Sequence record: PZ338878.1
Strand: one strand, 5' to 3'
DNA: 64,000 nucleotides
Source of the DNA: a phage
Shown here: positions 6,237 to 63,716 of the stretch, one piece after another
How positions within the stretch are numbered: the first letter of the stretch is position 1
Layout of the letters: the number at the start of each line of letters is the position of its first letter
Translations under genes and position numbers: made by a program
Notes under the pieces: model-generated
Database searches by the model: none
Told to the model about the DNA's origin: nothing
The model's input: only the letters and a program-made list of their open reading frames with translations

Positions 6237-6257
6237 TATATTTTCCTTATTGGTTTA

Positions 6258-6623
6258 TTAAACGTTTTCTAAATCTTTTAAGGCATTACCCAACGTTAGA
6301 ACAATAACATCGTTTGCTGCCTCTTCCCCATTGATATTGGTGAAATTTGGTGTGACAAAAGTAACCATATAAAACTCGTCCACCTGGAAGACAGCAATAA
6401 CACCGTCCATCTTAACATCTTGACGAAAGGAAAAACCAATCATCTTCTCTTGCAAAGGCATATCCCCTTCCTTCATTACTGCCAGGGAGTTTTCAGGAAT
6501 GTTATATTTATCTGCTCCGATGTAGATGTACGTAATGTTATCTTTATCGTGATGATACAGGGTTGCTTTTTCCATATCTAAACCTGACAGATCAAATACG
6601 TTAATTTCTTGTGTAGTCTTCAT
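6258..6623 (-). CDS. hypothetical protein (121 aa)
   Basis: start moved to ATG 6623 (MKTTQEINVF) with GGGAGGA RBS. Confidence 0.5.
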   Translation of the reverse strand: MKTTQEINVFDLSGLDMEKATLYHHDKDNITYIYIGADKYNIPENSLAVMKEGDMPLQEKMIGFSFRQDVKMDGVIAVFQVDEFYMVTFVTPNFTNINGEEAANDVIVLTLGNALKDLENV

Positions 6624-6987
6624 AAATATCCTCCCAAATCCAATAATCATCTGTGTAAGTAGGATGCCTTTTATCCCACTCTGTTCTAGCCCAAGCAACC
6701 GCTGCTACCAACACATCACCATGACAAGGTTGAGGTGAGCAGAAGCAAACTAAGTCTTTCCCTTCTAATTCTAACAAATCTTCAAGAGTGATTTTACCAC
6801 AACGAATTTGTTCCCACAACCACTCTTTATATCTTTGTATAGTTGATCCTCGTGGTTCATCATCCTTTAACTTAAAAGGATTTGCAAACTTTGAGGCTTT
6901 TAACCCCATATGAGGCATAGCTCTGCCAATGTACACTGCACCTTCAGGTATTACTTTACCTAAATGGTAGAAATTTAATACTTTCAT
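6601..6987 (-). CDS. DUF4326-like protein
   Basis: VYIGR...GNPF and CFCSPQPCHGDVL motifs; ATG start at 6987, upstream start in track is TTG. Confidence 0.45.
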   Translation of the reverse strand: MKVLNFYHLGKVIPEGAVYIGRAMPHMGLKASKFANPFKLKDDEPRGSTIQRYKEWLWEQIRCGKITLEDLLELEGKDLVCFCSPQPCHGDVLVAAVAWARTEWDKRHPTYTDDYWIWEDIYEDYTRN

Positions 6988-6988
6988 A

Positions 6989-7339
6989 TTAACCCAAACA
7001 CATCTGTGCAATCAAGCCCTGTATAAATTTATTAGCTTCTTTACTGTCGTAATCAGTTTCTTCTGGATATCCATCTTCATCGTACACAACTGTACCTTCA
7101 ATATACCCTGCCTCAATTAAGGCACGGATCATATCAAATTGCCAGCATGAGTTACCAAATGGACGTTTACCATTAAAACACTCTTCTTCTCTCCATAACG
7201 TAGAGAGTAGTTGTCGGAAATATTCCCGTACAGTGACAGTACCAAGATCTGAATCCTCAAACATAACATCCAGGGCATCAGGATTGCTTTTCTCTACATA
7301 AGGAATATATTTAACACCATTAATAGTTACATCAAGCAT
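6989..7339 (-). CDS. hypothetical protein (116 aa)
   Basis: ORF in operon. Confidence 0.5.
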   Translation of the reverse strand: MLDVTINGVKYIPYVEKSNPDALDVMFEDSDLGTVTVREYFRQLLSTLWREEECFNGKRPFGNSCWQFDMIRALIEAGYIEGTVVYDEDGYPEETDYDSKEANKFIQGLIAQMCLG

Positions 7340-7702
7340 TTATTTCTCCTTATCATCATATTCTAGGAACATATCTGCACGATATGCTTTACGCTCTTCA
7401 AACTTAGCAGGATCTACAACAATAAGCAATACAAGGTTAACATCTAAATACTTCTTAACAAATAGAAATAAATCTTTTCCACAGTTAAAACCTACACCAG
7501 TATAGGCATCCCCATATTGATCTACTGATTTAATCTTCTTACTAACCGTACATTCTATGCTATTCTTTTCTTCTTGGTATAAGGCTTTCCCACCCCAATA
7601 TGTAAAGAATTTAGTACCGTCAGCACCAAGTTTAAAACCTTCTGTTGCATGTCCAGCAAATGAAAGTAAACATAACCAAGTGATCATCAGGTACTTTAGC
7701 AT
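7340..7702 (-). CDS. putative secreted protein with N-terminal signal peptide
   Basis: MLKYLMITWLCLLSFAGHA hydrophobic leader; start at ATG 7702. Confidence 0.5.
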   Translation of the reverse strand: MLKYLMITWLCLLSFAGHATEGFKLGADGTKFFTYWGGKALYQEEKNSIECTVSKKIKSVDQYGDAYTGVGFNCGKDLFLFVKKYLDVNLVLLIVVDPAKFEERKAYRADMFLEYDDKEK

Positions 7703-7703
7703 T

Positions 7704-8186
7704 TTAACCACCCAATTGCAAATGTTTAGAAAGAACAATATCCCACTGATCACCACAACCGTTATCTATGCGGAACATAATGTACGTATCATCTTCTTCT
7801 ACAACATATAACACCTCATAGGAATTACAACAGCCTTCCCAATTTTTAACAGCCTCTGGTGTATCATGTGTAAAAATTTCATTACCATCATACGACCAAA
7901 ACAAAGGGGTGAGGTTTTCGAAGGTCAGTGAAGTAGGGTTCACTTCATCTTTAACTGCTTCCTCATACTCCTTATGCGTTTGTACTGCTTTAGTTAGTGT
8001 ACTCATGTCTATCTCCTTTTCTCCTTCTTGACTATGGAGGATAGCGAACTCTCTAAACTCCACTTCACGCCATGTTTTTAAGTAGTGCTTTATAATTTTA
8101 TCAACATCTGCCTGTTCAACATTACTTTTCAAGCAATAGTAATCATGGTCTTCGCCCATTCTACCCCATATGCTATACCTTGTCAT
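7704..8186 (-). CDS. hypothetical protein (160 aa)
   Basis: ORF in operon. Confidence 0.5.
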   Translation of the reverse strand: MTRYSIWGRMGEDHDYYCLKSNVEQADVDKIIKHYLKTWREVEFREFAILHSQEGEKEIDMSTLTKAVQTHKEYEEAVKDEVNPTSLTFENLTPLFWSYDGNEIFTHDTPEAVKNWEGCCNSYEVLYVVEEDDTYIMFRIDNGCGDQWDIVLSKHLQLGG

Positions 8187-43709: not shown

Positions 43710-44122
43710 TATTGCTTCTTCTCCTTAACACTAGCTGGTAATTCTGCCTTAAGGCAGAAGTTTAAACGGTAAGCCTCATTTTCATTTAAAAGTACAGATT
43801 CACACGATAACCAAAACAAGAGATCCTCAATACTAGGACTGTTAAGCCAACAGTGCAGAAGAGAATGTTGTTCTATATCAATGTAATTTAGCAACAAGCC
43901 TTGTAAGGCGTAACTAGTTCCTGTCGCTTTTGCTTTTTCAAGGATGATATTGTGTTTACTAACAACCTTCTTTCTAAGACCAAACCATTTACTAACAACA
44001 ACAGTCTCTTCTTGTAGTTGTTTTCTTATTTTCTCACATTCTTTAACTACAATCTGCATCTTATCCACTGCTGATTGAAGTTGTTCTTTTGTTGGGTTTA
44101 CAAAATAGTCACTATAATACAT
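43709..44122 (-). CDS. hypothetical protein (137 aa)
   Basis: ORF. Confidence 0.5.
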   Translation of the reverse strand: MYYSDYFVNPTKEQLQSAVDKMQIVVKECEKIRKQLQEETVVVSKWFGLRKKVVSKHNIILEKAKATGTSYALQGLLLNYIDIEQHSLLHCWLNSPSIEDLLFWLSCESVLLNENEAYRLNFCLKAELPASVKEKKQ

Positions 44123-44181
44123 GCTAATCTCCTCTTCTGTTTTTGTGTAGTTTATTCGAAAAAACTAGTGTTGTCAACAAA

Positions 44182-44201
44182 AAACCCGCCGAAGCGGGTT
44201 T
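44182..44201 (-). terminator. rho-independent terminator
   Basis: AAACCCGC-CGAA-GCGGGTTT; T-run on minus strand. Confidence 0.6.
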
Positions 44202-44204
44202 ATA

Positions 44205-44462
44205 TTATTCTACAGGAATTTCTTCACCAAGAGAAACTTCCAAACGGAATGCTTTACTTTCAATACATTCACTACCTTTTAAGAAATCGAATTGCACTAT
44301 AGACTGACTTAATAGAATAGATAGAATCACATCGCAATCTTCACTAGGAGCTAGATGTTTGTATTCTTCCTTCAAGGTAACATCATAAAAACATAAATCC
44401 CCTACCCCTAGTTCATCCCATCCTTCCCACGCATCTACAAAATTAAACTCTAGACCTTTCAT
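44205..44462 (-). CDS. hypothetical protein (85 aa)
   Basis: ORF. Confidence 0.5.
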   Translation of the reverse strand: MKGLEFNFVDAWEGWDELGVGDLCFYDVTLKEEYKHLAPSEDCDVILSILLSQSIVQFDFLKGSECIESKAFRLEVSLGEEIPVE

Positions 44463-44983
44463 ACAACCTCCTCGTAATTGTTATTGTGTTTTACTGTCTC
44501 AACATACAATAAAGATTCCATCTGTAAGACATTACCAGAAATAATAAACCCATAAGCCATTTCAGATGTATCTATATCGTATGCCCCATCTTCCGGTTTA
44601 GCAAAGTGTAAAACTATTTCATCTGGGTTTTCTTCATCCCATATTTTAGAAATTTTCCGAACCAGAATATTAGCTAAAATAGTTGACATTCGGGATAAAG
44701 CCGTATCCTCGTATCTTTTAAAACCTAACCAATAGAGGTTAAGAATTTCTACTTCTTCTTGTGTTAAGTTTTTGTCTAAAGTAATCAGATCTGTAGTGCA
44801 CGGCGTTTTTGTTGAACCTACTGTTACAAAACCTGGAGTGTTATGAAAAACAATCTTAACTTTATCACGTATGAAGTTTAAACCTTGTGCCTCAACTATA
44901 TATTGTATTGTAGGTACAATATCGTTTGTTACATCAATAAAGCTATCTTTGATGACGCTTATATTATTTCTGGACAAGACCAT
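44459..44983 (-). CDS. hypothetical protein (174 aa)
   Basis: ORF. Confidence 0.5.
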   Translation of the reverse strand: MVLSRNNISVIKDSFIDVTNDIVPTIQYIVEAQGLNFIRDKVKIVFHNTPGFVTVGSTKTPCTTDLITLDKNLTQEEVEILNLYWLGFKRYEDTALSRMSTILANILVRKISKIWDEENPDEIVLHFAKPEDGAYDIDTSEMAYGFIISGNVLQMESLLYVETVKHNNNYEEVV

Positions 44984-45542
44984 TCTCCTCTAAAATAGGT
45001 TTAATAAATTCGAAGATTTGTTTTTTACTTTTACCTCGAATATTAAAACAAGGAACATTAAACTTTTTAGCCAACATCCAAGCTGTTCTTGTACCACCCA
45101 AAGGATCTCCATTTTTATCTGTATTTGCACAAGCTAAAAGAAAACAAGACGGTTTTGGATTCTCAAGATCTTTGCCAAGAACTTGGTGGATATTCCTTTG
45201 ATGCAATTTTTTAGCACCTTGAGATAATCTGTCCCAAGCCGGATGCAATTCTTTTGCATATTGCAAGGTTAGAGCATAGTTTACACTATCTGGTCTGTCA
45301 AGAACAATAACCTCTCCCTCTATCTCATTACCTTTAAACGAAGGCCAAGGAATGTATATTTCTTTCTTTGTATTGTTTCCACTATCATATACCCCGCATT
45401 CAAATGCGGAATCTGCACCTTCTGCTTTACCAGATCGTAAAATGAACCATGTAGATAACCATTTTGCAACAGCTACCATAGTGTCCCATTCTTCGTCTGT
45501 AATATCTCTGCTACCAACACCTGTGTAGAATAAATCGCTCAT
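44964..45542 (-). CDS. SLOG/DprA-like Rossmann-fold protein (193 aa)
   Basis: TGVGSRDI...RSGKAEGADSAFECG resembles DprA/Smf motif; start at ATG 45542 with AAGGAG. Confidence 0.4.
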   Translation of the reverse strand: MSDLFYTGVGSRDITDEEWDTMVAVAKWLSTWFILRSGKAEGADSAFECGVYDSGNNTKKEIYIPWPSFKGNEIEGEVIVLDRPDSVNYALTLQYAKELHPAWDRLSQGAKKLHQRNIHQVLGKDLENPKPSCFLLACANTDKNGDPLGGTRTAWMLAKKFNVPCFNIRGKSKKQIFEFIKPILEENGLVQK

Positions 45543-45552
45543 GGTTTTCTCC

Positions 45553-45873
45553 TTAACAAGTAATATTGGGAATAATACTGGGAGTAACAATTGGAGTAAT
45601 AGGGTACGTAAACCAAGGGCTTCCAATTTCCCAAGGACTATAAGGTGTACGAGGATCAAATGGAGGCGTTACTTGAGGCTTTTTCCAAATCTCCTCTAGT
45701 TGTTTCTTCCATTTATCCCTTGCTGTATCGTTATCTTCATCCAACTGTTCGTCATTATCTTTTATTTCTGATTTTGGAAATAAAAGCTCTTTGACTAACT
45801 CAACGTCTTCCGTTTCAATAGTAGTTTCTTTCGTAATATTCCCTACCGTCTCTTTAATTGTGACTTTATACAT
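45553..45873 (-). CDS. hypothetical protein (106 aa)
   Basis: ORF. Confidence 0.5.
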   Translation of the reverse strand: MYKVTIKETVGNITKETTIETEDVELVKELLFPKSEIKDNDEQLDEDNDTARDKWKKQLEEIWKKPQVTPPFDPRTPYSPWEIGSPWFTYPITPIVTPSIIPNITC

Positions 45874-46619
45874 TAGTCCTCCTCTAAAGTAGAATAAAAT
45901 TGTAACGTATTTGAATCATTAAAATATGCAAAGGTTAAATTACCATTGAAGCAAGATCCTGTATCCATATATACCCTATTACTGCTAATTACAGGTTTAG
46001 GAACATAAGAATGCCCGTGAAATACATAATCTACTCCTGAAACTCTAGGAAGAAGAATCCCTTCAAGGGCGCAATCTATCATATCACGATCCCACATTAA
46101 AGATTCTGTGAATCGAGATACTTGTTCTTTATTCATATTCGAACAAAATGGCAAAACTTCCGTCACTGGTAGATGTTCCAAAACTGAAGGATATCCTCCG
46201 TGAATAAAGCCTAGTTTCATATTACGATAGTTGACAACAAGTACAACAGGTAAGTCTTCTAGCATCAAAGCAAGAGCAGTTGCACCTTCTTCTCCACACT
46301 CGTTTAGAACTGTATGGCCTCCGTTCTGAAACCAACATTCGTAATATCGCCTATCACCTTCTAGCAACCCTTTAATCATCATATCTTCGTGATTTCCACG
46401 AATAGCATAGCGATTTAGCTTTCTGGTGAATTCAACGGTACAACGAAAATTCTGCTTGCCGCGATCTGTAAGATCTCCTAAAGATACAACAACATCTTGA
46501 TCTCGGATACCTAAAGTATTAACACCTTTCTGGTATAAATCAAAGCAACCATGTAAATCACCAATAATAAACAGGTCTTGATCATCTTTTACACTAATTT
46601 CTTGATATACTAGCATCAA
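45873..46619 (-). CDS. Ser/Thr protein phosphatase (calcineurin-like metallophosphoesterase)
   Basis: GDLHG, GDLTDRG, GNHE motifs. Confidence 0.85.
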   Translation of the reverse strand: MMLVYQEISVKDDQDLFIIGDLHGCFDLYQKGVNTLGIRDQDVVVSLGDLTDRGKQNFRCTVEFTRKLNRYAIRGNHEDMMIKGLLEGDRRYYECWFQNGGHTVLNECGEEGATALALMLEDLPVVLVVNYRNMKLGFIHGGYPSVLEHLPVTEVLPFCSNMNKEQVSRFTESLMWDRDMIDCALEGILLPRVSGVDYVFHGHSYVPKPVISSNRVYMDTGSCFNGNLTFAYFNDSNTLQFYSTLEED

Positions 46620-46942
46620 CTCTCCTCAAAATCCATAAGTATAAAGATATTAACTTTACCTTCTATATTATGTTCTACAACGAGATCTGCAAATTCTTTG
46701 TAGGCTTTTTCTTCTATTTGTTCAATGTGAGACGCTACATCTTTGTATATAGCGTCACCATCTACTTTAACAAGGAGGAATAGAGATCTTACCTCAATCT
46801 CTTTATTTTTGCGGGGTAGAAAATCGACGGCTTCTTGTATACGCCAGCCGAGATACCCTGGAGTCCTTTGAATATCCTCCAAATGACTTTCTAAGATCTC
46901 CCTTCCTTTGTCTATTAAAGCCTGTTCTGTCGTTATTTTCAT
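46616..46942 (-). CDS. hypothetical protein (108 aa)
   Basis: ORF. Confidence 0.5.
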   Translation of the reverse strand: MKITTEQALIDKGREILESHLEDIQRTPGYLGWRIQEAVDFLPRKNKEIEVRSLFLLVKVDGDAIYKDVASHIEQIEEKAYKEFADLVVEHNIEGKVNIFILMDFEES

Positions 46943-52517: not shown

Positions 52518-52784
52518 TTACTCCGCAATCTGAGCCATGAATTCACGTAGTTCAGAAAAACCTCCTACGTGGGTTAGATGTTCACCATCTTCCACAAAAA
52601 TTTGAGGAAAGGTACGTGGCAGAACACCTGTTTTCTCTAAAACCAGATTCTGAATCTGATCTAAAGAATAGTCTTCATCTAAGGTAAGATATTTAAAATC
52701 CTGTTCACGCTGTTCCAGTAGAATCTTAGCGTTAGTGCAGAAAGGACAATTTGGTTTACCGTAGATAATAAAATTCATTTTCAC
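52518..52784 (-). CDS. glutaredoxin-like protein (RNR electron donor)
   Basis: CPFC active-site motif; 88 aa. Confidence 0.8.
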   Translation of the reverse strand: MKMNFIIYGKPNCPFCTNAKILLEQREQDFKYLTLDEDYSLDQIQNLVLEKTGVLPRTFPQIFVEDGEHLTHVGGFSELREFMAQIAE

Positions 52785-53611
52785 TCCTTGTTTAAAAGTA
52801 TAGTTAAAGTTCTTACAATACCGCTATCAACACTTCGCGGATTTAAAGTAGGATCTGTTTTTAAATAAGATGTTGCTGGTCTGACTGCTTTAGAATTATA
52901 GGTTGAAGCAGATACAGGATTAACTGTAACAGATAAATCTATAACAAGAAATATCTTACGTGCAAAATCATACCAAGAAATATAATCTGCACCTGCATAG
53001 TGTACAATTTTACTATTTACACCATCTTTTACAAGTTTAAAAATTGTTTCTGCAAGATCAGGTGCATAAGTAGGACATGATAAATGATCACATACTACAT
53101 TAAATTCTTTTTGACCACCGTTGTAGCGTTCCAACATAGTTTTCAAAAAGTTATGTCCAAATTCACTATAAACAGAAGCTGTTCTGATAATAAGTGCTGT
53201 AGGACAAACTGCTTGTACTAAAGTTTCACCTAATTGTTTACTGTAACCGTAGGTGTTCAAGGGGTTTGTTTTACTATCTTCTGTGCCAGCAACATGCCCA
53301 TCAAAAACATAGTCTGTTGAAATATGTACAAACTGTATCAGTAAATCATTACATGCTTTGGCAATGTTTGTTGCACCGTATGCATTAACATTTATACAGG
53401 TGTTAACATCTTCTTCAGCTTTATCTACTGCCGTGTAAGCTGCACAATTCACAACAACGTCAGGCACGTGCTGTACAAGACTATTCATAACATCTTTAAA
53501 GTTGGTAATGTCTATATCACTTGCTTCAATCAAAATAACATCTTCGGGCGCAACTTTTGCCAAAGACTGTCCTAATTGACCTTTTGAACCAAAGATTAAA
53601 AATTTTGTCAA
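52781..53611 (-). CDS. rmlD: dTDP-4-dehydrorhamnose reductase
   Basis: N-terminal Rossmann GSKGQLG; size and operon position. Confidence 0.75.
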   Translation of the reverse strand: MTKFLIFGSKGQLGQSLAKVAPEDVILIEASDIDITNFKDVMNSLVQHVPDVVVNCAAYTAVDKAEEDVNTCINVNAYGATNIAKACNDLLIQFVHISTDYVFDGHVAGTEDSKTNPLNTYGYSKQLGETLVQAVCPTALIIRTASVYSEFGHNFLKTMLERYNGGQKEFNVVCDHLSCPTYAPDLAETIFKLVKDGVNSKIVHYAGADYISWYDFARKIFLVIDLSVTVNPVSASTYNSKAVRPATSYLKTDPTLNPRSVDSGIVRTLTILLNKE

Positions 53612-54162
53612 AATATGATCTCCTTTAGTGTTTTGGCTTGCTGATCTTTTTGTGACAAGATAGGTTTAAAATTAATATCATTAAAGATTAAATCAAAACC
53701 CCAATCTATATTGATATCTGGATCATTCCACACAAGACTACACTCTGAAGTCGGATCGTAATATTCTGTACATTTATATTCAAAATCAGCAATGTCGCTA
53801 ATCACAACAAAGCCATGAGCGAAACCAGGAGGAATCCAAAATTGTGTTTTATTCTTTTCAGATAAAAGAACACCTACCCATTCTCCAAATGTCGGACTAC
53901 CAACCCTAATATCTACAGCAACATCATAAACTTCACCACGAACACAACGTACTAACTTCCCTTGTGGGTTTTTCTTTTGAAAATGAAGCCCACGTAGAAC
54001 TCCTCGAATAGAACGTGAGTGGTTATCCTGGACAAAGTTTTGTTTACCTATGTATTGATCATATAAAGCCTGATTAAAACTTTCTAAGAAAAAGCCACGT
54101 TCATCTCCGTAAACGTCAGGTTGAATGATCAACAAATCTTCGATTTTTGTTGCTTGAATCAT
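53608..54162 (-). CDS. rmlC: dTDP-4-dehydrorhamnose 3,5-epimerase
   Basis: DERGFF motif; cupin-size 184 aa. Confidence 0.8.
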   Translation of the reverse strand: MIQATKIEDLLIIQPDVYGDERGFFLESFNQALYDQYIGKQNFVQDNHSRSIRGVLRGLHFQKKNPQGKLVRCVRGEVYDVAVDIRVGSPTFGEWVGVLLSEKNKTQFWIPPGFAHGFVVISDIADFEYKCTEYYDPTSECSLVWNDPDINIDWGFDLIFNDINFKPILSQKDQQAKTLKEIIF

Positions 54163-54174
54163 TTAATTCCCCCT

Positions 54175-55044
54175 TTATTTTAATTTAAGTAAATACTTAC
54201 CGTAGTCTGTTTTACTTAAAACCTCTCCAGAACTTTTTACAGAGTCTAAAGTAATCCATTCATTTTTAAAAGCAATCTCTTCTAGGCATGCAACCTTCAT
54301 ACCTTGTTGCTTTTCTATTGCATGAACAAATTGAGATGCTTCCATAAGACTTTCATGTGTTCCTGTATCCAGCCAAGTGAAACCTCTTCCTAGTTTACAG
54401 ACACGTAAAGTCTTTTCTTTCCAGTACATCTCATTTATATCTGTAATCTCTAACTCCCCTCTAGCAGAAGGTTTAACGCTCTTAGCTTTCTGTATAACAG
54501 AATTATCGTAAAAGTACAAGCCTGTGATTGCGTAGTTGCTTTTTGGTGCTTTTGGTTTTTCTTCAATACTCACCACTGTACCTTCAGAATCAAACTCAAC
54601 AACACCAAATCTTTCAGGATCATTTACGTGATACCCAAAAATATTAGCTCCACCATTCTTTTCAATATATTCTTTAGTAGAATCTAAAATGCTACCAAAA
54701 CTCTGACCAAAGAATAAATTATCACCTAGCACAAGTGCTACAGAATCTTCGCCAATAAAGCTCTCACCAATAATAAACGCTTCTGCTAAACCTTTCGGGC
54801 TTTCTTGTATTGCATACTGTAGGGAAATACCAAAAGAAGAACCATCACCTAAAAGATTTACAAAATTAATTTGATCTTCTGGTGTTGTAATTATTAGTAT
54901 TTCCCTAATTCCAGAAAGCATTAGGACAGAGAGTGGATAATAAATCATAGGCTTATCGTAAATTGGTAATAGTTGTTTACTAACCCCTTTAGTAACTGGG
55001 TAAAGTCTTGTTCCACTACCACCTGCTAAGATAATACCTTTCAT
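54175..55044 (-). CDS. rmlA: glucose-1-phosphate thymidylyltransferase
   Basis: N-terminal [14 protein letters not shown]. Confidence 0.9.
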
Positions 55045-55052
55045 ACTCCTCC

Positions 55053-56042
55053 TTAAACTTTATTTTCCCACCACTCTTTGTTATCTACATACCAATCAAT
55101 GGTTGAATAAAGTTTTTCTTCAAATGTGCCTTTAGCTTTCCACCCTAATTCCTTTTCAATCTTATAAGGATTCACTTCATATCTTAGATCATGCCCAGGT
55201 CTATCTGTAACCATCTCAATTAGGCTACAAGCATCTGTTTCAGATGGATACACCGCATCCATATAATCACAAATCATATAGATTACATCAATATTAGTTC
55301 TAGGGTTTCTGCTCCCAATATTATATGTTTCTCCAGATTTGCCTTTAGTTACTACTAGGTGTAGTGCTTCTGCGTGATCGTCAACGTATAACCAATCTCT
55401 TACTTGAAGACCATTACCGTAAACAGGGATTGGTTTATGCATCAAGATATTTGTTATCGTTTTAGGTATTAGTTTTTCTGGATGATGATATGCTCCAAAA
55501 TTATTTGAACAATTTGTTATAACTGTCGGAATACCATAAGTACGATGCCACGCTCTTACCAAATGATCGCTTGCAGCTTTAGATGCAGCATATGGACTAC
55601 TTGGTTTATAAGGATTCTGTTCTGTAAACGGATAATCCCCTTCTTCCATATCACCATACACTTCATCTGTTGAAATATGATGAAACATTTTAAGATTTGA
55701 TTTATCTCCCATTAAACGAACAGCTTCTAGAAGATTAAATGTTCCAACAATATTTGAATTTATAAAAACACTCGGTGATGCTATTGAATTATCTACGTGA
55801 CTTTCTGCTGCAAGATGCATTATATAATCTGGATTAACATCTGCCACAATCTTAGCAGTTAACTGAGCATTTGTCAAGTCAACACGACAAAACTTTACAT
55901 TAGGTGTTTCTGATAAATTTCTAGGGTCTGAAGCGTAACCCCATTTATCTATAACGTAAATATCATTCTTAGTATTTTTAGCCAGGAAACGAACTACTGC
56001 ACTTCCAATAAAGCCTAAACCACCTGTTACTAAGTATTTCAT
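55053..56042 (-). CDS. rmlB: dTDP-glucose 4,6-dehydratase
   Basis: TGGLGFIGS and YAASKAASD (YxxxK). Confidence 0.9.
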
Positions 56043-56897: not shown

Positions 56898-57108
56898 CTT
56901 TTTCTCCTTTGATAATTTCAAACTTGGCTACACCATTAACTATAATATGACCGCAAGACATAACTCCTAGCCAATGATCACCATTCTTTTTTAAACGTTT
57001 GCCGTAAACATCACAGAAACCATTCTGTAATTCGGAAGCCTCATAAGAGGCTCCCTTTTCGAAAACGTCTTTGAAGTCAGAAATTAATCCAACACAAAGT
57101 AGTTTCAT
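56890..57108 (-). CDS. hypothetical protein (72 aa)
   Basis: TAATG coupling to nrdB. Confidence 0.45.
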   Translation of the reverse strand: MKLLCVGLISDFKDVFEKGASYEASELQNGFCDVYGKRLKKNGDHWLGVMSCGHIIVNGVAKFEIIKGEKDD

Positions 57109-58193
57109 TAGAAGTCTAACTCCTCGTCATCACTTACATCTTTATTTGCTGAATTCAGTTTGTAAGCTGTAATTTGGATCTCCTGTGCTGCTGCTTGAAT
57201 TTGATCTGGATTTAACCAAACATCCATCCAAGGCAGTGGACTTTTCTTCGGTGCACGGAATTTATGTTTCATTTTCAGTCTGCGATAGATAGGTGCAGCA
57301 TTGAAGTAAACCCAAAGTTTGAACAACTCTGCGTTACCACCAACGATAACCCTTCCTTCACTAAACAGATAGTCACACCAATCTTCCTCTTGTCCAACTA
57401 CCGTGTCAAGAATTTCTGTCAGAACGTCGATATTATCTTCGTATACTTTTCTCCAAACAGGATCTTTCAGCAGTGCATCAATAATAGCATAATCCATTTT
57501 AACGTGCAATAGTTCATCCAACATAATTTTTTGAATGAGTTTAGCTGCACCTACAAACAGTTGCTGCTCTGCTAAAGCAAATGTTGCAGCAAAAGAGGAT
57601 ATGAATTGAATGCCTTCCAGACCGATAAGTGCAATCATTCCTTTCAGGATCAGTAGACGAAGGTTATCATCCTTCTCAATCAGACCTAGAGCATATTTAT
57701 GTCCTGCCTCTGCCAGATCACTCATTATCTCTTCAACTATACCCATCCTCTGGAAGATTCTTTCGTTCTCCATAATCTGATCGATAACTTCATTTGGATT
57801 AGGGATACACTGACGAATAATTTCAGAATATGTCAAAGCGTGTAAAACTTCCATTTCCGATTGCTTCATCATCATTGCACATGCTTCGTTGTTGCTTAAA
57901 AATGGTGCAAACAAAGTGATAATTGATTTAGCAAGTGAATCATTTTCCCATTGGAAAGATAGGTTTTTGATCATAACATCATAGTTGCTTTTAGAACAAG
58001 CTACGAAATCTTTTCGTGTCTGATCTAAGTCTACCTCGTTTTCATCCCAATCTTGCTGTTTTTGTAGTTTGTACAGACGATGCATTTCTGGGTATGTTAC
58101 ATTAATAGAATCAAAAATACCTAACTGTTCTCCCAAAAATACAGGATAGAAACCTTCTTTGTAAGTGTCGTTGTATAAATTAATCGCTGCCAT
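57108..58193 (-). CDS. nrdB: ribonucleotide reductase class Ia beta subunit
   Basis: EDWCDYLF, NPLPWMDVWL and acidic C-terminal tail parallel E. coli NrdB. Confidence 0.85.
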   Translation of the reverse strand: MAAINLYNDTYKEGFYPVFLGEQLGIFDSINVTYPEMHRLYKLQKQQDWDENEVDLDQTRKDFVACSKSNYDVMIKNLSFQWENDSLAKSIITLFAPFLSNNEACAMMMKQSEMEVLHALTYSEIIRQCIPNPNEVIDQIMENERIFQRMGIVEEIMSDLAEAGHKYALGLIEKDDNLRLLILKGMIALIGLEGIQFISSFAATFALAEQQLFVGAAKLIQKIMLDELLHVKMDYAIIDALLKDPVWRKVYEDNIDVLTEILDTVVGQEEDWCDYLFSEGRVIVGGNAELFKLWVYFNAAPIYRRLKMKHKFRAPKKSPLPWMDVWLNPDQIQAAAQEIQITAYKLNSANKDVSDDEELDF

Positions 58194-58555: not shown

Positions 58556-60817
58556 TTACATCTTACAAGCCTCACAACCGGATTCTTCATCCTCTTGAGC
58601 GAGTGAGGTTGCCGATTTTGTTCTGCTATTTAGATAGTACAAAGATTTACCACCAAGTTTTGCAAACTGAAGAATATATTGCATTTCTGATTTAATGGAT
58701 AAACGACCACCTTCCATCTTAGAATAGTCAATCCACTTATCACATGATGCACCTTGATCTAAGAATTTAGTCAATAATCCATATGCTTCAGCCATATCTT
58801 TATCTGGCGTATCCCAAGCCGATTGGTAAATATCTTTTAGTTTATCATAGTCTGGCACAATAAACAGGACATTACCTTTTTGGCTTTGTTTATAAACTAT
58901 AGTATCACGTACAGGATACACAGAGTTAGTCGTATTACTTACAAGACTACTGGACTCATTCGGAGCAATAGCTGCTAATACACTATTTCGGATACCGCCT
59001 TGTGCAATGATATCTTGTCGTAAACCTTCCCAATCCATTTTAAGTTTAAAATTGCCAATATCGTCTACAGCTTTAGCGTAGGTGTCAATAGGCAACCATC
59101 CTTCAGGCCATTTGGTTTTATGCATCCATTCTGCATTACCCTTCTCTTTTGCCAAACGAAGAGAAGCTCTTGCTAACCAGTAATAATGCCTTTCTGCTAA
59201 TTCGTGAATTAGTTTTTTGCCGTAAGGATCTGAATAAGTAACAAAATTACTTGCCAGATAATGTGCAAGGTTTGTAATACCTACACCGATAGACCTACGT
59301 GCTTTAGCAGTGATTTCGTTATGTTTAAACGGATACTGCATTGTTTCAATAACATTATCAATAGTTAGAACGGTATAGTATGCAACATCTTCATATTCTT
59401 CTGGTGTAACACGACCAGCTACAATAGAAGACAGGAAGCATAATGCCAATTCTTGATCTTCTGTATTCTCACCTGTGAAAAGATCAGTCATATTGTGAAA
59501 TGCTTTCGTAGGTAAGAAAATTTCTTGGCACAAGTTTGACTGATAAATAACATCCTTAAACGGAGTATGCTTATTAGCATTATCCGCAAAGAACATATAA
59601 ATACGTCCTGTCTCTGCTCTTTGTGTAATAATTTCTGCCAGAAGATCTCGTGCTTTTACAAACTTCTTCTTAATACGTTTGCGACTAACTTTTTCATATA
59701 CTTCTTCAAACTCTTCCTCGCTTTTATAAAGCGCCTCATAGAGTTCTGGTGCTTCGTCATAACTAACTAGCATCCAATCTTTACCTTTTGCTGCACGGCG
59801 CAGGAAAGCATTGTTTACTACGATAGAGTAATCAAGTTTATCTACTCGTTTTTCACTAACAGTAGTTGGGTTTTTCAAACGTACCAAATCTTCAAAATCA
59901 GGTTCTAGTATTGTAAACGTTACTGTTGCACTTCCACCACGACTTGCTTGTTTTGATGCTCCAACACTTGTCTCCATCCATTTCAGATATGGTAAAAGAC
60001 CACCGTGAACGATACGGTTGTTCTTAACACCTTGTCCTGTAGCACGGGTTTGGAGGTTAACACCAATACCTGCATTATTCAATGTATATTCATGCGCAAG
60101 ATAGTTAGCAATTGCTAAAGATTCTGCTGTATCATCTGCTCTAAACAGACAACAAGAAGCACTACCTTTAATCTTAGTACGCAAAGTTGTTAAATAAGGT
60201 GATGGTAAATTAATCTTAAGATCACTTACGTAGGTATATAGACGTTTAATGTCTTCTACTCTGCGATCTTTTGGTTGGATTTCCATTACCTTCATTGCTA
60301 CACCAATGAATAAAAACTGTGGTGATTCAAAAACAACATCATTGATCGCATCTTTGACAAGATACTTATCAACCATCTGGCGTAGTACGGAATAACCATA
60401 AGTTAGGTTTTTATCGTGATTGACAATTTTACCAATCTCAATAATTTCTTCTTCTGTATAATCCATTTTTCCCCAATAGCCTTTACTTACAGACATATTG
60501 TAGAAATCCAGGAGGGAGGGGATATTATGATATCCCCCATGAGCCTGTTTATAAATCATACCAAGAAGTAACCGACCTGCCATATCACTATATGCCTGAT
60601 CTTTCTTATCAATACATGCTGCTATCATAGCTTTATGTAAATCACGAGTAGGCACACCGTCGTAACAACGTTTAACAGCTTCAAGTTCAATTTCAGACCA
60701 ATTTAATTTACCAGCAGCAAACTCTGACCATTTACGAAGTTTTTCTGGATTAAATTCTTCTTTCTTGCCGTTTGTTTTTGTTACATAACGGATAGATTTG
60801 CTTAGATACTGAGTCAC
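58556..60817 (-). CDS. nrdA: ribonucleotide reductase class Ia alpha subunit
   Basis: 753 aa; active-site NLCQEI; C-terminal CEAC pair. Confidence 0.9.
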   Translation of the reverse strand: MTQYLSKSIRYVTKTNGKKEEFNPEKLRKWSEFAAGKLNWSEIELEAVKRCYDGVPTRDLHKAMIAACIDKKDQAYSDMAGRLLLGMIYKQAHGGYHNIPSLLDFYNMSVSKGYWGKMDYTEEEIIEIGKIVNHDKNLTYGYSVLRQMVDKYLVKDAINDVVFESPQFLFIGVAMKVMEIQPKDRRVEDIKRLYTYVSDLKINLPSPYLTTLRTKIKGSASCCLFRADDTAESLAIANYLAHEYTLNNAGIGVNLQTRATGQGVKNNRIVHGGLLPYLKWMETSVGASKQASRGGSATVTFTILEPDFEDLVRLKNPTTVSEKRVDKLDYSIVVNNAFLRRAAKGKDWMLVSYDEAPELYEALYKSEEEFEEVYEKVSRKRIKKKFVKARDLLAEIITQRAETGRIYMFFADNANKHTPFKDVIYQSNLCQEIFLPTKAFHNMTDLFTGENTEDQELALCFLSSIVAGRVTPEEYEDVAYYTVLTIDNVIETMQYPFKHNEITAKARRSIGVGITNLAHYLASNFVTYSDPYGKKLIHELAERHYYWLARASLRLAKEKGNAEWMHKTKWPEGWLPIDTYAKAVDDIGNFKLKMDWEGLRQDIIAQGGIRNSVLAAIAPNESSSLVSNTTNSVYPVRDTIVYKQSQKGNVLFIVPDYDKLKDIYQSAWDTPDKDMAEAYGLLTKFLDQGASCDKWIDYSKMEGGRLSIKSEMQYILQFAKLGGKSLYYLNSRTKSATSLAQEDEESGCEACKM

Positions 60818-61089: not shown

Positions 61090-61500
61090 TTAGAATTCAG
61101 AATCATCATCTCGTGATGGATCATGTTCATTTCCGAAGTCTTCCATTTTGATATGAGAGCTACCCCAACCTGTAAAATCTTCTTCTCCAAAGTGCAAAAT
61201 ATCTACACCTTGATAGATTCGCTTATATTTATAGTCTTGTCGAACTGGGAAAGTATACAATGTAGTATTTGCAAACACCACACGTCGATTGTTGTTACTA
61301 CGAATATTAACACCACGTTCTACTGTATAATGTCCATCGGTAGACATACCAAGCATTACTAATGCTGCTCGCAATGTGGTGTTATGATACTCGTGAGGAA
61401 TTTTTCCTCCGTGCTTTTTAGCCATTTCTTTCCAGATCGGTGTAGCCTTAATGGTAGACATACTTACGGTCGCCCAAATGGTTGTATTAATTAGTGACAT
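61090..61500 (-). CDS. hypothetical protein (136 aa)
   Basis: ORF. Confidence 0.5.
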   Translation of the reverse strand: MSLINTTIWATVSMSTIKATPIWKEMAKKHGGKIPHEYHNTTLRAALVMLGMSTDGHYTVERGVNIRSNNNRRVVFANTTLYTFPVRQDYKYKRIYQGVDILHFGEEDFTGWGSSHIKMEDFGNEHDPSRDDDSEF

Positions 61501-61597: not shown

Positions 61598-62569
61598 TCA
61601 CCATTTTGTATGGTTCGTCAAAAGTTGACGATGTTGAATCCAACCACAGAAGTTTCCACTCCACAAACGATGTTTACGATCCATATGTGTAATACCTTCT
61701 TCCCAGGAGGAAGGGAACGGAGGAATATTAATACCACCTTTCTGTTGTTTTAATCCTGACAAATCCATTTCTTTCATTGGCGTTGCCTGGTGTTCAAACG
61801 GAGATGCATGTACCTTTTGTCCAGACAGCAAACGAGAATAGATATCCAATGCTTTATCTTTAGTATCATTCAACTTACGATAACTTACCTGAGCGCAACA
61901 AGAAGCTGAAATAGCTTTTGCTTCATCTTCTGTCAACACTTTCTCGTTGGAGAAGGTTTCACCCAAGAAATAACGGATCATACCAGTTTCTGGATCTCGA
62001 TCACGATTAACGTAAGGTGTATGCCATTCCCCTGGGAAAAGAAGATATGGTTCAGAAGATTCATACAGTTTTTTAATTTCTTTAGCAAGAGCCTCAATAG
62101 TAGGATCTGCATCAGCATCTACGCGCAACCACAAGAAGTTTTCTAGCTCTGTAGTGGTTACTACAGTCTTCATACGCTGAAATGGTTCTAGTAGGCGGTT
62201 TGCAACCTGTTTATGATAACCAGCAAGGGAAAACTCTTCTGCAAAACGTGCAGCACTTAGCGCAGCCAAGTCCCACCATTCTTTTGCAGTATAACCTGCA
62301 TCAATCAGGGCATCGTGATCTGTGCCTTTATCTTGCATACCTGGTTGGTTAGCACCAAAACGATAAGGACGTGCTGGAGATTGCCGTACCATTTCAATCA
62401 GGGTTTTAACAGGGATAGCTCGACTTGATGCGGCATTACGAGAAAACAAACGATGCGTCATCAATTCAGAGTGAATGATTCGAGGATATTCAAGTTCAAA
62501 GGTAACAATATCCTTACCTTCGGATGTTTGAGAGTGTGCAATAATTTTTGCTGAAATAGAATTTGTCAT
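61598..62569 (-). CDS. ThyX-like (flavin-dependent thymidylate synthase family) protein, atypical motif order
   Basis: THRLFSRNAASSR (RHR-x7-S-like), NFLWLRVDADA, HASPFEH motifs; 323 aa. Confidence 0.55.
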   Translation of the reverse strand: MTNSISAKIIAHSQTSEGKDIVTFELEYPRIIHSELMTHRLFSRNAASSRAIPVKTLIEMVRQSPARPYRFGANQPGMQDKGTDHDALIDAGYTAKEWWDLAALSAARFAEEFSLAGYHKQVANRLLEPFQRMKTVVTTTELENFLWLRVDADADPTIEALAKEIKKLYESSEPYLLFPGEWHTPYVNRDRDPETGMIRYFLGETFSNEKVLTEDEAKAISASCCAQVSYRKLNDTKDKALDIYSRLLSGQKVHASPFEHQATPMKEMDLSGLKQQKGGINIPPFPSSWEEGITHMDRKHRLWSGNFCGWIQHRQLLTNHTKW

Positions 62570-62578
62570 TATTTCTCC

Positions 62579-63169
62579 TTAAGGTAGTAAAATACTTTCA
62601 ATTTCTTCCCACTGATTATCTAAACCAGTGATAATTACATTAGGAAGTTTCTTTAACTCTTCCAAATATGGATCTTCGTAAATAGTGTTGAAATATATTT
62701 TCAACGTTTCATCTGGAAACAGGACAAGATTTTCAGCCCTATCGTCAATAGTTACATCGCAAGGTAATAAGTATTTTTCTTTTGTTGCGAAAAAGCCATT
62801 ACCAGATGTTCTACTAAAATCCACTTTATCTAAAGATCGTGTTACGTGTCTATATTTAGAACTAAGGTGTCCACCCTTAGTGTGGCTCGCTATAGATATA
62901 TTAGCTCCATTTGCAATTATACGATGAACAACATCTGTACTATTAGGTACTACTCCCATAGTATCATATAGATGTTGGTTATCCCAAAAAGAGTAAGGAT
63001 CTACACCAAATTGCTTTTTAAAATCAGGGAAATATTTCGTAATATCATAGTGCACAGTCTTATGTGTCTTATCAAATTTGATATTAGATCTACTTACCGC
63101 ATTTAACCAATTTAACCATTCTATATCCGCTGGAGCTATTACTAAATCCCAATCACATACTAGACGCAT
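62579..63169 (-). CDS. HAD-superfamily 5'-nucleotidase-like protein
   Basis: CDWDLV (DxD) and TIDDRAEN motifs; start at ATG 63169 with AGGAG. Confidence 0.5.
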   Translation of the reverse strand: MRLVCDWDLVIAPADIEWLNWLNAVSRSNIKFDKTHKTVHYDITKYFPDFKKQFGVDPYSFWDNQHLYDTMGVVPNSTDVVHRIIANGANISIASHTKGGHLSSKYRHVTRSLDKVDFSRTSGNGFFATKEKYLLPCDVTIDDRAENLVLFPDETLKIYFNTIYEDPYLEELKKLPNVIITGLDNQWEEIESILLP

Positions 63170-63716
63170 TATTTCTCCTGTTATAACATTTTCTACACAT
63201 TGTTTCGTAAATGTCTTCTCCTCCAATAACAATCTGTTCTTTAGAGTCGATAAGTCTAGCATTGAAAATAGCTTTTCTTCCACATTTACAAATGCTTTTC
63301 AATTCTGTAATTGAATCTGCTATGGCTAATAACCGTTCAGAACCTTCAAACAATTCTGTAGCAAAATCTGTTTTAAGTCCATAGCAGAATACAGGAATAT
63401 CGTAATTGTCTACCACATCTCCAAGAATGTCAACCATATCTTTAGTTAGGAATTGTGATTCATCCACAAATACTGCATCTACTGGATTCTCTTTAAGTTG
63501 TGTATAAATTTCCAGCATATCTTCTTTTGTTTTAACTGGTTTTGCTTCCTCTTTAATACCTATCCTAGAAGCAATAGCACTACCAGATCTGGTATCTAAA
63601 GCTGAAGTTAAAAGAAGAACTTTCATATTTCTTTCTTTATAGTTCCAAGCTGTTTGTAGAAGATGTGTGCTTTTACCACTGTTCATCGGACTATATCGGA
63701 AATAAAGTTTAGCCAT
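63153..63716 (-). CDS. tdk: thymidine kinase
   Basis: P-loop SPMNSGKST; overall parallel to E. coli Tdk. Confidence 0.9.
   Translation of the reverse strand: MAKLYFRYSPMNSGKSTHLLQTAWNYKERNMKVLLLTSALDTRSGSAIASRIGIKEEAKPVKTKEDMLEIYTQLKENPVDAVFVDESQFLTKDMVDILGDVVDNYDIPVFCYGLKTDFATELFEGSERLLAIADSITELKSICKCGRKAIFNARLIDSKEQIVIGGEDIYETMCRKCYNRRNNASSM

Follow-up and report, generated by a model that had tools for sequence, protein, structure and literature searches.

The window, i.e. the whole 64,000 nt stretch of DNA that was analysed (record PZ338878.1), comes from an AT-rich phage (37% GC). An open reading frame on its minus strand, between positions 61598 and 62569, starts with ATG and on translation is the longest at the locus; it encodes 323 aa, as an earlier note made from the sequence alone had reported. 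The gene (thyX) and its neighbours are as follows.

61598..62569, minus strand: complete coding sequence of a rearranged ThyX-family protein, a probable flavin-dependent thymidylate synthase, 323 aa plus stop
62575..62580, minus strand: strong Shine-Dalgarno sequence AAGGAG, 6 nt upstream of the ATG
62579..63169, minus strand: upstream neighbour, HAD/NT5C-like putative 5'(3')-deoxyribonucleotidase (Pfam NT5C, 22.9 bits, below the gathering score)
63153..63716, minus strand: thymidine kinase, tk (Pfam TK, E=1e-54)
58556..60817, minus strand: class Ia ribonucleotide reductase large subunit, nrdA (from the annotation of near-identical phages)
57108..58193, minus strand: ribonucleotide reductase small subunit, nrdB (from the same annotation)
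52781-56042, minus strand, as thyX: rmlB, rmlA, rmlC and rmlD, ~5.5 kb from thyX

The Shine-Dalgarno sequence of thyX overlaps the stop codon of the NT5C-like gene. The latter is likely to start at M39 of an ORF of 234 aa; its product has a DWD motif, and that of a relative is annotated at 196 aa. Together tk, the NT5C-like gene, thyX, nrdA and nrdB would make up a nucleotide-supply module on a single strand. The rml genes to which the earlier note had drawn attention are indeed close by. Searches of the window, and of the complete genome of a phage that is 98.9% identical, found no gene for ThyA, FolA (DHFR), canonical ThyX, Dut or Dcd.

The protein has many relatives. Its family comprises 4970 representative clusters at 50% identity, and full-length matches (27-99% identity) are present in 1035 phage records; a genome scan with close sequences gave at least 16 loci, a figure limited by the search pattern that is not an estimate of prevalence. 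In phages ICP1 and JG004 and the N4-like phage SP5M the family gene is adjoined by genes for RNR or dCTP deaminase, and there are no rml or modification genes beside it. In N4-like roseophages it co-occurs with dCMP deaminase (PMC11934525, PMC2784036), and in a survey of jumbo phages ThyA was found to co-occur with DHFR and to be anticorrelated with ThyX (PMC7824862).

Fold and conserved residues

The Pfam profile PF02511 (Thy1) matched the protein with a score of 36.5 bits and E=5.4e-9, the match spanning only residues 22-170, which correspond to profile positions 59-186 of 191. PHROG_85 'thymidylate synthase' was matched with E=1.7e-108. The NCBIfam equivalog model TIGR02170 (EC 2.1.1.148) gave 35.5 bits, below its curated cut-off of 87.9. 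Both computational checks proposed in the earlier note therefore came out for ThyX: the score lies above the Pfam gathering score of 24.8 bits, although below the TIGR02170 cut-off, and an AF2 model of the single chain without ligands (pLDDT 95.3, pTM 0.92) has the predicted three-dimensional fold of ThyX. Similarity to the solved ThyX chains in the PDB is so low that phmmer and tblastn make no connection to them; the single sequence gave no match, and a 17-sequence profile reached only E ~0.7. The protein is also longer than a typical ThyX, as had been noted, exceeding the 191 positions of the Pfam model, the 211 of TIGR02170 and the 191-245 aa of the solved chains.

Conservation was assessed in an alignment of 107 diverse relatives that are 37-76% identical to the query; canonical residues are numbered as in Thermotoga maritima ThyX. 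The relevant elements are listed here.

62420..62458, minus strand: THRLFSRNAASSR, residues 38-50, counterpart of the ThyX signature R78-H-R-x7-S88-x-R90 (HHalign, conservation)
62288..62380, minus strand: family-specific conserved loop, residues 64-94, P.RFG.NQ.GMQ... (G77 99%, M78 invariant)
62117..62140, minus strand: NFLWLRVD, residues 144-151, corresponding to canonical N169-F-L-x-L-R174 (N144 and R149 invariant)
61667..61675, minus strand: KHR, residues 299-301, a chance tripeptide (conservation)

Residues 38-51 read T38-H-R-x7-S48-S-R50-A51 on translation. The strict RHR-x7-S signature, extended by R90-Y91, is thus absent. T38 takes the place of R78 in 95% of the family, the counterpart of R80 is retained in 79% and that of Y91 is alanine in 100%; H39, S48 and R50 are each 100% conserved. 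The THR-x7-S-x-R that the earlier note saw near the N-terminus in place of RHR-x7-S is therefore real, and the change of arginine to threonine is a hallmark of the family. The NFL-LR-D block that it described is N144-F-L-W-L-R149-V-D151, with N144 and R149 100% conserved, and its PFEH motif is H254-A-S-P-F-E-H260 (H254 100%, E259 93%, H260 99%). All three motifs (THR-x7-S-x-R, NF.WLR.D and H.SPFEH) are kept family-wide. The tripeptide that it placed after PFEH is present at K299-H-R301. It is not conserved as a motif, the commonest residues at its three positions being D (30%), G (60%) and N (20%). A second RHR at this point is therefore ruled out, and on the alignment KHR is a chance match.

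Of the catalytic and dUMP- or uracil-binding residues, the counterparts of H53 (H254), S88 (S48), R90 (R50), R147 (R125) and R174 (R149) are 100% conserved. Those of H79 (H39) and N169 (N144) are invariant as well, and those of N85, E58 and H59 nearly so. Titles of PDB entries list the ThyX variants H53D, S88A, R90A, R174A/K and Y91F. Other positions are replaced throughout the family, i.e. R78 by T38, R165 by T140, R74 by S34 (A or S in the family), Q75 by E35, E86 by A46 (A or S) and Y91 by alanine. Of these R165, R74, Q75 and E86 are active-site residues of ThyX (PDB 1O26). R78 is one of those that PMC3498832 names as key contacts of dUMP and as 'conserved in the ThyX family'. With R78 changed to threonine and R165, Y91, E86, R74 and Q75 replaced, details of the cofactor or substrate could differ, and this counts against an ordinary enzyme. 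Five residues are new to the family and invariant in it (M78, K120, H183, P185 and R314), and R314 or K120 may compensate for the lost arginines.

The loss of the strict RHR signature and of two flavin- or phosphate-binding arginines, together with a score under the curated equivalog threshold, might suggest a catalytically dead ThyX relic, retained for the binding of dUMP or flavin or for regulation. We consider this very improbable. Seven catalytic or substrate-binding residues are 100% conserved between sequences that are only 37-76% identical to the query, and the family is very large. Moreover, the gene is the only candidate for a thymidylate synthase in the phage, and members of the family occupy the housekeeping locus in bacteria (see below). 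Inteins also target its motifs; in relatives they are found at five different insertion sites, all in or directly beside conserved motifs.

Order of the segments

The succession of elements along the chain is that of the following list.

62528..62554, minus strand: N-terminal beta-strand, residues 6-14, leading through a tight turn into the strand that corresponds to ThyX beta3 (AF2 secondary structure)
62048..62515, minus strand: ThyX core, residues 19-174, corresponding to canonical 59-199, i.e. beta3, alpha3, the nucleotide loop, the long helices, beta4 and alpha6-alpha7
61934..62047, minus strand: linker, residues 175-212, with invariant W-H183-T-P185-Y and a small beta-hairpin at 188-201 (AF2, conservation)
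61775..61933, minus strand: relocated segment, residues 213-265, two helices and H254-A-S-P-F-E-H260, corresponding to canonical 20-64 (HHalign, re-ordered constructs, AF2)
61601..61774, minus strand: C-terminal tail, residues 266-323 (conservation)

In canonical ThyX the N-terminal strands are followed by alpha1 and alpha2 with H53...E58-H59, and only then by beta3 and the RHR helix. This is not the order found here. HHalign aligned query residues 19-174 with ThyX 59-199 (E=1.4e-6) and residues 220-265 with ThyX 21-64 (E=3.6e-6), i.e. out of order; the relocated segment was matched to ThyX in a further comparison with E=2e-7. In a control in which columns were shuffled the score was 13.7 +/- 3.4 with a maximum of 26, compared with 49.3 for the real alignment. 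The canonical equivalents of the relocated segment are alpha1, alpha2, the H53...E58-H59 motif and the start of beta3, and the AF2 helices 214-227, 237-248 and 256-260 correspond to canonical 20-31, 38-50 and 55-59. The C-terminal half alone gave no ThyX match in Pfam or NCBIfam, and the segment is detectable only in canonical order or by HHalign. Restoring that order in re-ordered constructs raised the Pfam score from 36.5 to 45-49 bits and that of TIGR02170 from 35.5 to 45-50 bits (at most 50.2), a gain of 12-14 bits, and extended profile coverage to positions 5-14. We note that even when re-ordered the protein remains far below the TIGR02170 cut-off (50 vs 87.9 bits), and this too is a point against assigning it as a ThyX.

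The alignments thus place the three-helix segment (canonical ~20-59) after helix alpha7, and not between the N-terminal strands and beta3. This bears out the rearranged motif order proposed in the earlier note (canonical H-x-[ST]-P-F-E-H precedes RHR), as well as its term 'permuted', taken in a broad sense. In three dimensions the relocated helices would lie at the same place as in canonical ThyX.

That note had also raised the possibility of a pseudo-dimer, i.e. two fused and partly degenerate Thy1 domains in one chain. A length of 323 aa is ~1.5 times that of canonical ThyX, KHR resembles a second RHR tripeptide, and some relatives of ~630 aa have two matching stretches. However, a self profile-profile comparison with HHalign gave no off-diagonal match, i.e. 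no internal repeat; every ThyX segment occurs once, KHR is not conserved, the ~630-aa relatives carry intein insertions rather than tandem domains, and tail residues 266-323 have no significant similarity to ThyX. The pseudo-dimer was not borne out, and we regard it as scarcely credible.

The ends of the chain bear on how the new order arose. The N-terminal strand 6-14 probably corresponds to canonical strand E9-17, judging from its identical length of nine residues and its position in the model, although the profile margin is weak: without this strand TIGR02170 coverage stops short of profile position 5, the difference being ~1.5 bits. With the helical segment clearly displaced and the N-terminal strand apparently still N-terminal, the evidence favours transposition of a segment, by that same small margin. 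A strict circular permutation would have arisen instead by tandem duplication and fusion with subsequent truncation of both ends; hairpin 176-212 would then be canonical beta1-beta2, and strand 6-14 an addition or a relic. Canonical 59-64 aligns to both ends (query 19-24 and 260-265), an overlap that is typical of permutants derived by duplication, and, as in the canonical enzyme, a hairpin lies before the relocated helices. The tail is marginally like canonical F77-R-H-R: compared with canonical residues 60-92 it scored 12.4 vs 7.1 +/- 2.3, with 3/100 shuffles as high and an ambiguous register. Against this, the profile scores gain nothing from the hairpin (48.8 vs 48.7 bits) whereas the N-terminal strand raises them to 50.2 bits with coverage to position 5, minimal bacterial forms lack the hairpin yet retain the N-terminal strand, and strand 6-14 fits E9-17. 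No similarity to canonical ThyX was detected for residues 176-215 and 1-22, which favours neither process, nor for the linker 175-212 as a whole. Strict permutation is rather doubtful, and transposition of the segment is somewhat favoured.

Residues 266-300 of the tail are variable and missing in the bacterial forms, and the conserved end is S-G-N-F-x-G-W-x-Q312-x-R314 (R314 invariant, Q312 97%, N306 92%). Hypothetically, G-W-x-Q-x-R might be a vestigial second beta3-alpha3/RHR in which R314 stands in for R78.

Minimal rearranged ThyX proteins of 264-290 aa are found in Actinomycetota and Dormibacterota, for example in Euzebya pacifica, Egicoccus halophilus and Kineosporia spp., and are named 'FAD-dependent thymidylate synthase' by NCBI. 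The bacterial clade gives the same two out-of-order HHalign matches, lacks hairpin 188-201 and scores 40-56 bits with TIGR02170. On present sequences the rearranged layout is common to thousands of phage proteins and some bacterial ones. In the literature searched the family is called only 'thyX' or 'putative thymidylate synthase' and the rearrangement is unmentioned; nor did searches there for a permuted or atypical phage ThyX turn up any account of it.

The literature and the curated models recognise a ThyX by its RHR-x7-S signature and by a fixed order of domains. Both rules are broken by a very large class (~5000 clusters at 50% identity, >1000 sequenced phages) in which the catalytic core is kept. 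The class escapes TIGR02170 altogether, and the Pfam match spans just two-thirds of the protein, so that several near-identical phage records label the gene 'hypothetical protein'. ThyX is a studied antibacterial target, and its gene also figures among the viral auxiliary metabolic genes; in virome surveys the number given for the rearranged class may be too low. With R78, R165 and Y91 replaced in nature, the class offers a natural experiment on which residues ThyX cannot do without.

Probable function and known systems

We think it probable that the gene product is a functional member of the ThyX superfamily, a flavin-dependent thymidylate synthase of the rearranged class that makes ordinary dTMP. 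The enzyme would form dTMP from dUMP, with methylene-tetrahydrofolate, a reduced flavin and NAD(P)H taking part, and so supply an AT-rich phage that lacks ThyA and DHFR. ThyX releases THF, not DHF, in keeping with the absence of DHFR. The rearranged gene of Euzebya pacifica and Egicoccus halophilus lies beside dapB, dapA, the RNase J gene (rnj) and ftsK, which is the classical actinobacterial position of thyX (M. tuberculosis Rv2754c-Rv2753c-Rv2752c). The rearranged class is thus also found at a housekeeping position in some Actinomycetota. This bacterial synteny and the lack of another thymidylate synthase in the phage lend indirect support to ordinary dTMP synthesis, the most likely function. 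For the biology of the phage the conclusion from sequence is itself an ordinary one: most likely it makes its own dTMP without DHFR.

The earlier note had suggested an enzyme making a modified pyrimidine, in keeping with the rml genes. A neofunctionalised ThyX-like enzyme might act on another nucleotide (UMP or dCMP) or give another C5 product such as 5-hydroxymethyl-dUMP, and in phi92/phAPEC8-like phages its product might enter a modification of thymidine to which the rml and glycosyltransferase genes are tied. Positions that contact sugar and phosphate differ family-wide (R74 to A/S, Q75 to E, R78 to T, E86 to A/S, Y91 to A), rmlBACD lies 5.5 kb away, four glycosyltransferases are encoded elsewhere in the genome of a relative, and the BASEL paper describes 'putative dTDP glycosylation machinery' in phi92-like phages. 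On the other hand, the counterparts of the uracil-recognising residues R90, R174 and S88 are invariant, and identical replacements are seen in the bacterial proteins encoded at the housekeeping thyX locus and in >1000 phages without rml genes, the members in ICP1, JG004 and the N4-like phage SP5M being examples; nor does the phage have any other thymidylate synthase. In PMC8594841 the Vequintavirinae and their relatives, and likewise phAPEC8/phi92-like phages, are reported as 'exceptionally susceptible' to RM systems, which argues against bulk modification of T. The marks of thymidine hypermodification would be a conserved linkage to modification genes and restriction-resistant DNA; no such linkage was seen in ICP1, JG004 or SP5M, and for DNA the reported sensitivity of relatives points the other way. 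The suggestion was thus not upheld, and we consider a changed substrate or product improbable. The sole plausible link to rml is that DNA synthesis and RmlA both draw on the dTTP pool.

The rearranged class (N4 gp30/rV5/ICP1-type together with the Nitriliruptoria/Kineosporia type) might differ in its biochemistry and so represent a second form of flavin-dependent thymidylate synthase, although we think this unlikely. If so, the moved H53 helices, the loss of R78, R165 and Y91 and the gain of K120, H183 and R314 would mean that the flavin and nucleotide site is rewired. Cofactor (FMN vs FAD, and the reductant), subunit arrangement or nucleotide specificity could change, and product or inhibitor sensitivity could be unlike those of ThyX enzymes studied so far. 

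Canonical ThyX is a homotetramer with bound FAD, in which active sites are formed from three subunits, and the phage enzyme is presumably oligomeric too. Transposition of the segment would be a non-sequential rearrangement in an enzyme whose canonical active site spans several subunits.

The nearest known system is the protein's own family, the N4 gp30-like or PHROG_85 proteins, with which it has the rearranged order, the THR motif and the tail in common. These are encoded by rV5, phi92, phAPEC8, PVP-SE1, ICP1 (gp193), JG004 (gp130), PAK_P1-like phages and N4-like roseophages; a sub-clade of Stephanstirmvirinae and Vequintavirinae has VD.DADPTI in place of the.H.DAQPEI seen in most of the family. 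The chromosomal minimal forms of bacteria are 38-42% identical to the phage protein and keep T38, M78, K120, H183, P185, Q312 and R314, but are without hairpin 188-212 and tail residues ~266-303.

PolB of Streptomyces cacaoi (4P5A), a ThyX paralogue that methylates UMP and dUMP at C5 in polyoxin biosynthesis, is 17-19% identical. It has the canonical segment order and is encoded in an antibiotic biosynthetic cluster, whereas the context of the phage gene gives no sign of secondary metabolism.

With canonical ThyX/FDTS (PF02511; TIGR02170; EC 2.1.1.148), exemplified by T. maritima TM0449 (1O26, 5CHP), M. tuberculosis ThyX (2AF6), PBCV-1 A674R (4FZB) and H. pylori ThyX (3AH5), the protein has the core order from beta3 to alpha7 in common. 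The expected chemistry and genomic role appear alike, bacterial members lying at the dapA-rnj-ftsK position of thyX. The alpha1-alpha2-HxxPFEH unit precedes beta3 in the canonical enzymes and follows alpha7 in the phage protein. The latter also has additional elements, namely the loop 64-94 (where canonical ThyX has a different, shorter segment), the WH183TP185Y linker and the C-terminal GN..GW.Q.R314 tail.

The gene and its family

The protein contains all three of the motifs that the earlier note had recognized (THR-x7-S-x-R, NFL-LR-D and PFEH). The tripeptide KHR, read there as a further motif, is also present, but it is not conserved in the family and is a chance occurrence.

The thyX gene and motifs in its translation
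61598-62569, minus strand: rearranged thyX ORF, 323 aa, ATG start, AAGGAG 6 nt 5′ of the ATG
62117-62140, minus strand: N144-F-L-W-L-R149-V-D151
Phage thyX protein: T38-H-R-x7-S48-S-R50
Phage thyX protein: H254-A-S-P-F-E-H260
Phage thyX protein: K299-H-R301, tripeptide

The Pfam Thy1 profile is matched at 36.5 bits (gathering score 24.8), the alignment being limited to residues 22-170 (profile positions 59-186 of 191), and PHROG_85 'thymidylate synthase' is matched with E=1.7e-108. An AlphaFold2 model calculated from 107 diverse relatives reaches very high confidence (pLDDT 95.3, pTM 0.92). By these profile matches and the model, the protein has the ThyX fold. A sequential alignment covers just about two-thirds of canonical ThyX, and phmmer with the phage protein matched no chain in the PDB set at E<=10. 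TIGR02170, the curated thyX equivalog with a cut-off of 87.9 bits, gives a score of 35.5 bits. Curated models do not recognize this variant.

phAPEC8/phi92-like E. coli myoviruses (Stephanstirmvirinae) share 99% identity with the window, and their annotations label the gene either 'putative thymidylate synthase' or 'hypothetical protein'. Over 9 kb, this E. coli phage has 98.8% identity with records entitled Campylobacter phage A150, A145 and C3, while the homologue in those of C9 and A142 is just 52% identical in protein sequence and resembles rV5-like coliphage hits. The Campylobacter host labels of these unannotated GenBank records (MG065639, MG065645, MG065656, MG065661, MG065662) look doubtful. 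In Escherichia phage vB_EcoM-ECP26 the homologue is annotated as two 'thymidylate synthase' proteins of 245 and 97 aa (BFVD A0A4Y5TVX3 and A0A4Y5TVY4), the pieces parting downstream of the core. A frameshift or a sequencing error could account for this, or the gene may truly be split.

Rearrangement of the ThyX segments

A profile of 107 family members was compared with one of 30 canonical ThyX sequences, whose T. maritima seed is 100% identical to the PDB chain. Two independent, non-overlapping matches were found, in reversed order relative to canonical ThyX: residues 19-174 correspond to ThyX 59-199 (E=1.4e-6) and residues 220-265 to ThyX 21-64 (E=3.6e-6). The C-terminal part alone gave the second match with a score of 49.3 (E=2e-7), compared with 13.7 ± 3.4 and a maximum of 26.0 for 30 column shuffles. 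In artificial constructs with residues 213-260 placed ahead of residue 21, the Pfam Thy1 score rose from 36.5 to 48.5-49.2 bits and that of TIGR02170 from 35.5 to 48.7-50.2 bits, and the start of profile coverage moved from position 59/60 to positions 5-17. The DSSP maps agree with this. Canonical ThyX runs E2-5, E9-17, H20-31, H38-50, H55-59, E61-69, H70-77 and onwards; in the model the phage protein runs E6-14, a tight turn, E20-29, H30-37 and the core through H156-171, followed by H214-227, H237-248, H256-260 and E262-264. The rearrangement is thus real, as the earlier note had proposed in calling the enzyme permuted. The three-helix segment with the H53...E58-H59 motif has shifted from between the N-terminal strands and β3 to a position after helix α7.

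The N-terminal strand appears to have kept its place, the construct that keeps residues 1-16 reaching TIGR02170 position 5 with the best score, 50.2 bits. The hairpin at 181-212 gives no gain in score in the re-ordered constructs and is absent from the minimal bacterial forms. For these reasons transposition of a segment is favoured, by a small margin in these sequence comparisons, over a clean circular permutation.

A pseudo-dimeric enzyme, the other architecture suggested, is ruled out. Comparison of the family profile with itself gave no off-diagonal alignment, and the relatives of about 630 aa with two matching stretches carry HNH- or LAGLIDADG-type inteins.

Such inteins are found in many family members of 520-680 aa (P0133, P0139, P0140, P0142, P0165, P0203, P0205, P0234, P0236, P0238, P0247, P0248, P0251, P0257 and P0258). 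They occupy at least five distinct sites, each in or directly beside the most conserved ThyX motifs: before E-x-MTHR, after THR, inside SS|SR(AIP), after LR.H, and between H254 (the H53 counterpart) and SPFEH. The family is an intein hot-spot.

Active-site residues and nucleotide supply

Across the 107 sequences, which share 37-76% identity with the query (T. maritima numbering for canonical positions), the counterparts of S30, H53, H79, S88, R90, R147, N169 and R174 are invariant, those of N85, E58, H59 and L173 are 93-99% conserved, and that of R80 is 79% conserved. Family-wide replacements are R78 by T (95%), R165 by T (97%), Y91 by A (100%), Q75 by E (93%), R74 and E86 by A/S, and N163 by T/S. 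Peculiar to the family are the invariant M78, K120, H183, P185, S221 and R314 (phage numbering) and the near-invariant G77, Q312 and N306. The loss of canonical R78 is striking because R78, R80, S88 and R90 are key dUMP-contacting residues conserved in ThyX (PMC3498832). Tested as the vestige of a second β3-α3/RHR element, the tail G-W-x-Q312-x-R314 scored a marginal 12.4 against 7.1 ± 2.3, equalled by 3 of 100 shuffles; as a hypothesis only, R314 might make up for the lost R78.

In the greater part of the family, bacterial members included, the invariant R149 is followed by x-H-x-D-A-Q-P-E-I, a sequence nearer to the D-S-H-A-Q-x-E-I of canonical ThyX than is the V-D-x-D-A-D-P-T-I of the Stephanstirmvirinae/Vequintavirinae sub-clade (62117-62140, minus strand, in the window). 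This clade-specific change adjoins the counterpart of the flavin/uracil-contacting helix.

The gene lies in a same-strand module in the order thymidine kinase, NT5C-like nucleotidase, thyX, two small ORFs, nrdA, a small ORF and nrdB. The three small ORFs have no match in Pfam.

Neighbouring features, all on the minus strand
62579-63283: candidate NT5C/HAD-type 5′(3′)-deoxyribonucleotidase, 22.9 bits (just below the Pfam cut-off), DWD motif; true start probably M39 (63169), with a 17-nt overlap with the thymidine kinase gene end
61090-61500: small conserved ORF, 136 aa
60829-61089: small conserved ORF, 86 aa
58180-58590: small conserved ORF, 136 aa
52781-56042: rmlB-rmlA-rmlC-rmlD, complete dTDP-L-rhamnose synthesis set

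No ThyA, DHFR, canonical ThyX, dUTPase or dCTP deaminase was found in the window or in the complete genome of the 98.9%-identical phage PD06 (NC_052653.1). With a GC content of 37% in the window, thymidylate demand should be high. ThyX chemistry regenerates H4folate, and the absence of DHFR fits with this. A survey of jumbo phages notes that ThyA and DHFR occur together and that ThyA is anticorrelated with ThyX (PMC7824862). In ICP1, JG004 and an N4-like coliphage the homologue has genes for RNR or dCTP deaminase as neighbours, and N4-like roseophages have it together with dCMP deaminase, labelled simply thyX (PMC11934525, PMC2784036). From this gene context its function is predicted to be ordinary phage nucleotide supply.

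PD06 has an unusually rich metabolic set, with anaerobic RNR (nrdD/G, apparently split over several ORFs), PRPP synthetase, nicotinamide phosphoribosyltransferase, an orotate phosphoribosyltransferase-like gene, a Sir2-like protein, TerC- and tellurite-resistance-like genes and several DNA methyltransferases.

The earlier note had linked the enzyme to a modified pyrimidine. The rml genes lie 5.5 kb from thyX, and PD06 has four consecutive glycosyltransferase genes (43764-46940, outside the window). The linkage to rml is confined to phi92/phAPEC8-like phages, none of these genes being beside the homologue in ICP1, JG004 or the N4-like coliphage. Moreover, the BASEL study (PMC8594841) describes Vequintavirinae and their phAPEC8/phi92-like relatives as 'exceptionally susceptible' to RM systems, the 'putative dTDP glycosylation machinery' giving no protection. 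Given this susceptibility, the invariance of the uracil-binding residues and the bacterial orthologues at a housekeeping locus, a non-dTMP product is improbable.

Distribution and bacterial members

A phmmer search of a library of 50%-identity representatives gave 4970 clusters at E<=1e-3 and 1498 at E<=1e-30, virtually all of which belong to the rearranged class, since canonical ThyX was not reached at E<=10 even in the much smaller PDB set. By tblastn, full-length matches down to 27% identity were found in 1035 phage records, and the family is present in rV5-, phi92-, PVP-SE1-, ICP1-, PAK_P1/JG004-, N4- and phiCbK-like phages and in Flavobacterium and Cellulophaga phages. The phage gene belongs to a large class of ThyX set apart by its architecture: the H53-bearing helices are transposed, THR stands in place of RHR, and the tail is new and carries an Arg. 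No description of it was found in the searchable literature.

The class is not confined to phages. A minimal version of 264-290 aa, named 'FAD-dependent thymidylate synthase' by NCBI, occurs in Kineosporia, Egicoccus, Euzebya and MAGs of Dormibacterota and Actinomycetota, and in Actinomycetota it is chromosomal.

Bacterial loci with the minimal version (locus coordinates)
7001-7861: Euzebya pacifica CP031165.1 (L024), complete chromosome, between dapB and dapA-RNase J-FtsK
7001-7861: Egicoccus halophilus (L026), adjoining dapA-RNase J-FtsK
5989-6783: Kineosporia babensis (L020), among PBP, MFS and VWA genes

The dapA-RNase J-FtsK setting is the classical actinobacterial thyX neighbourhood (Rv2754c thyX, Rv2753c dapA and Rv2752c rnj in M. 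tuberculosis, and dapB-thyX-dapA in C. glutamicum), so that the rearranged form is the positional equivalent of the housekeeping thymidylate synthase. The minimal version gives the same two out-of-order HHalign matches to canonical ThyX. It shares with the phage protein the order of segments, the THR motif and the invariant residues specific to the family, and all that it lacks is the hairpin and the tail's variable stretch.
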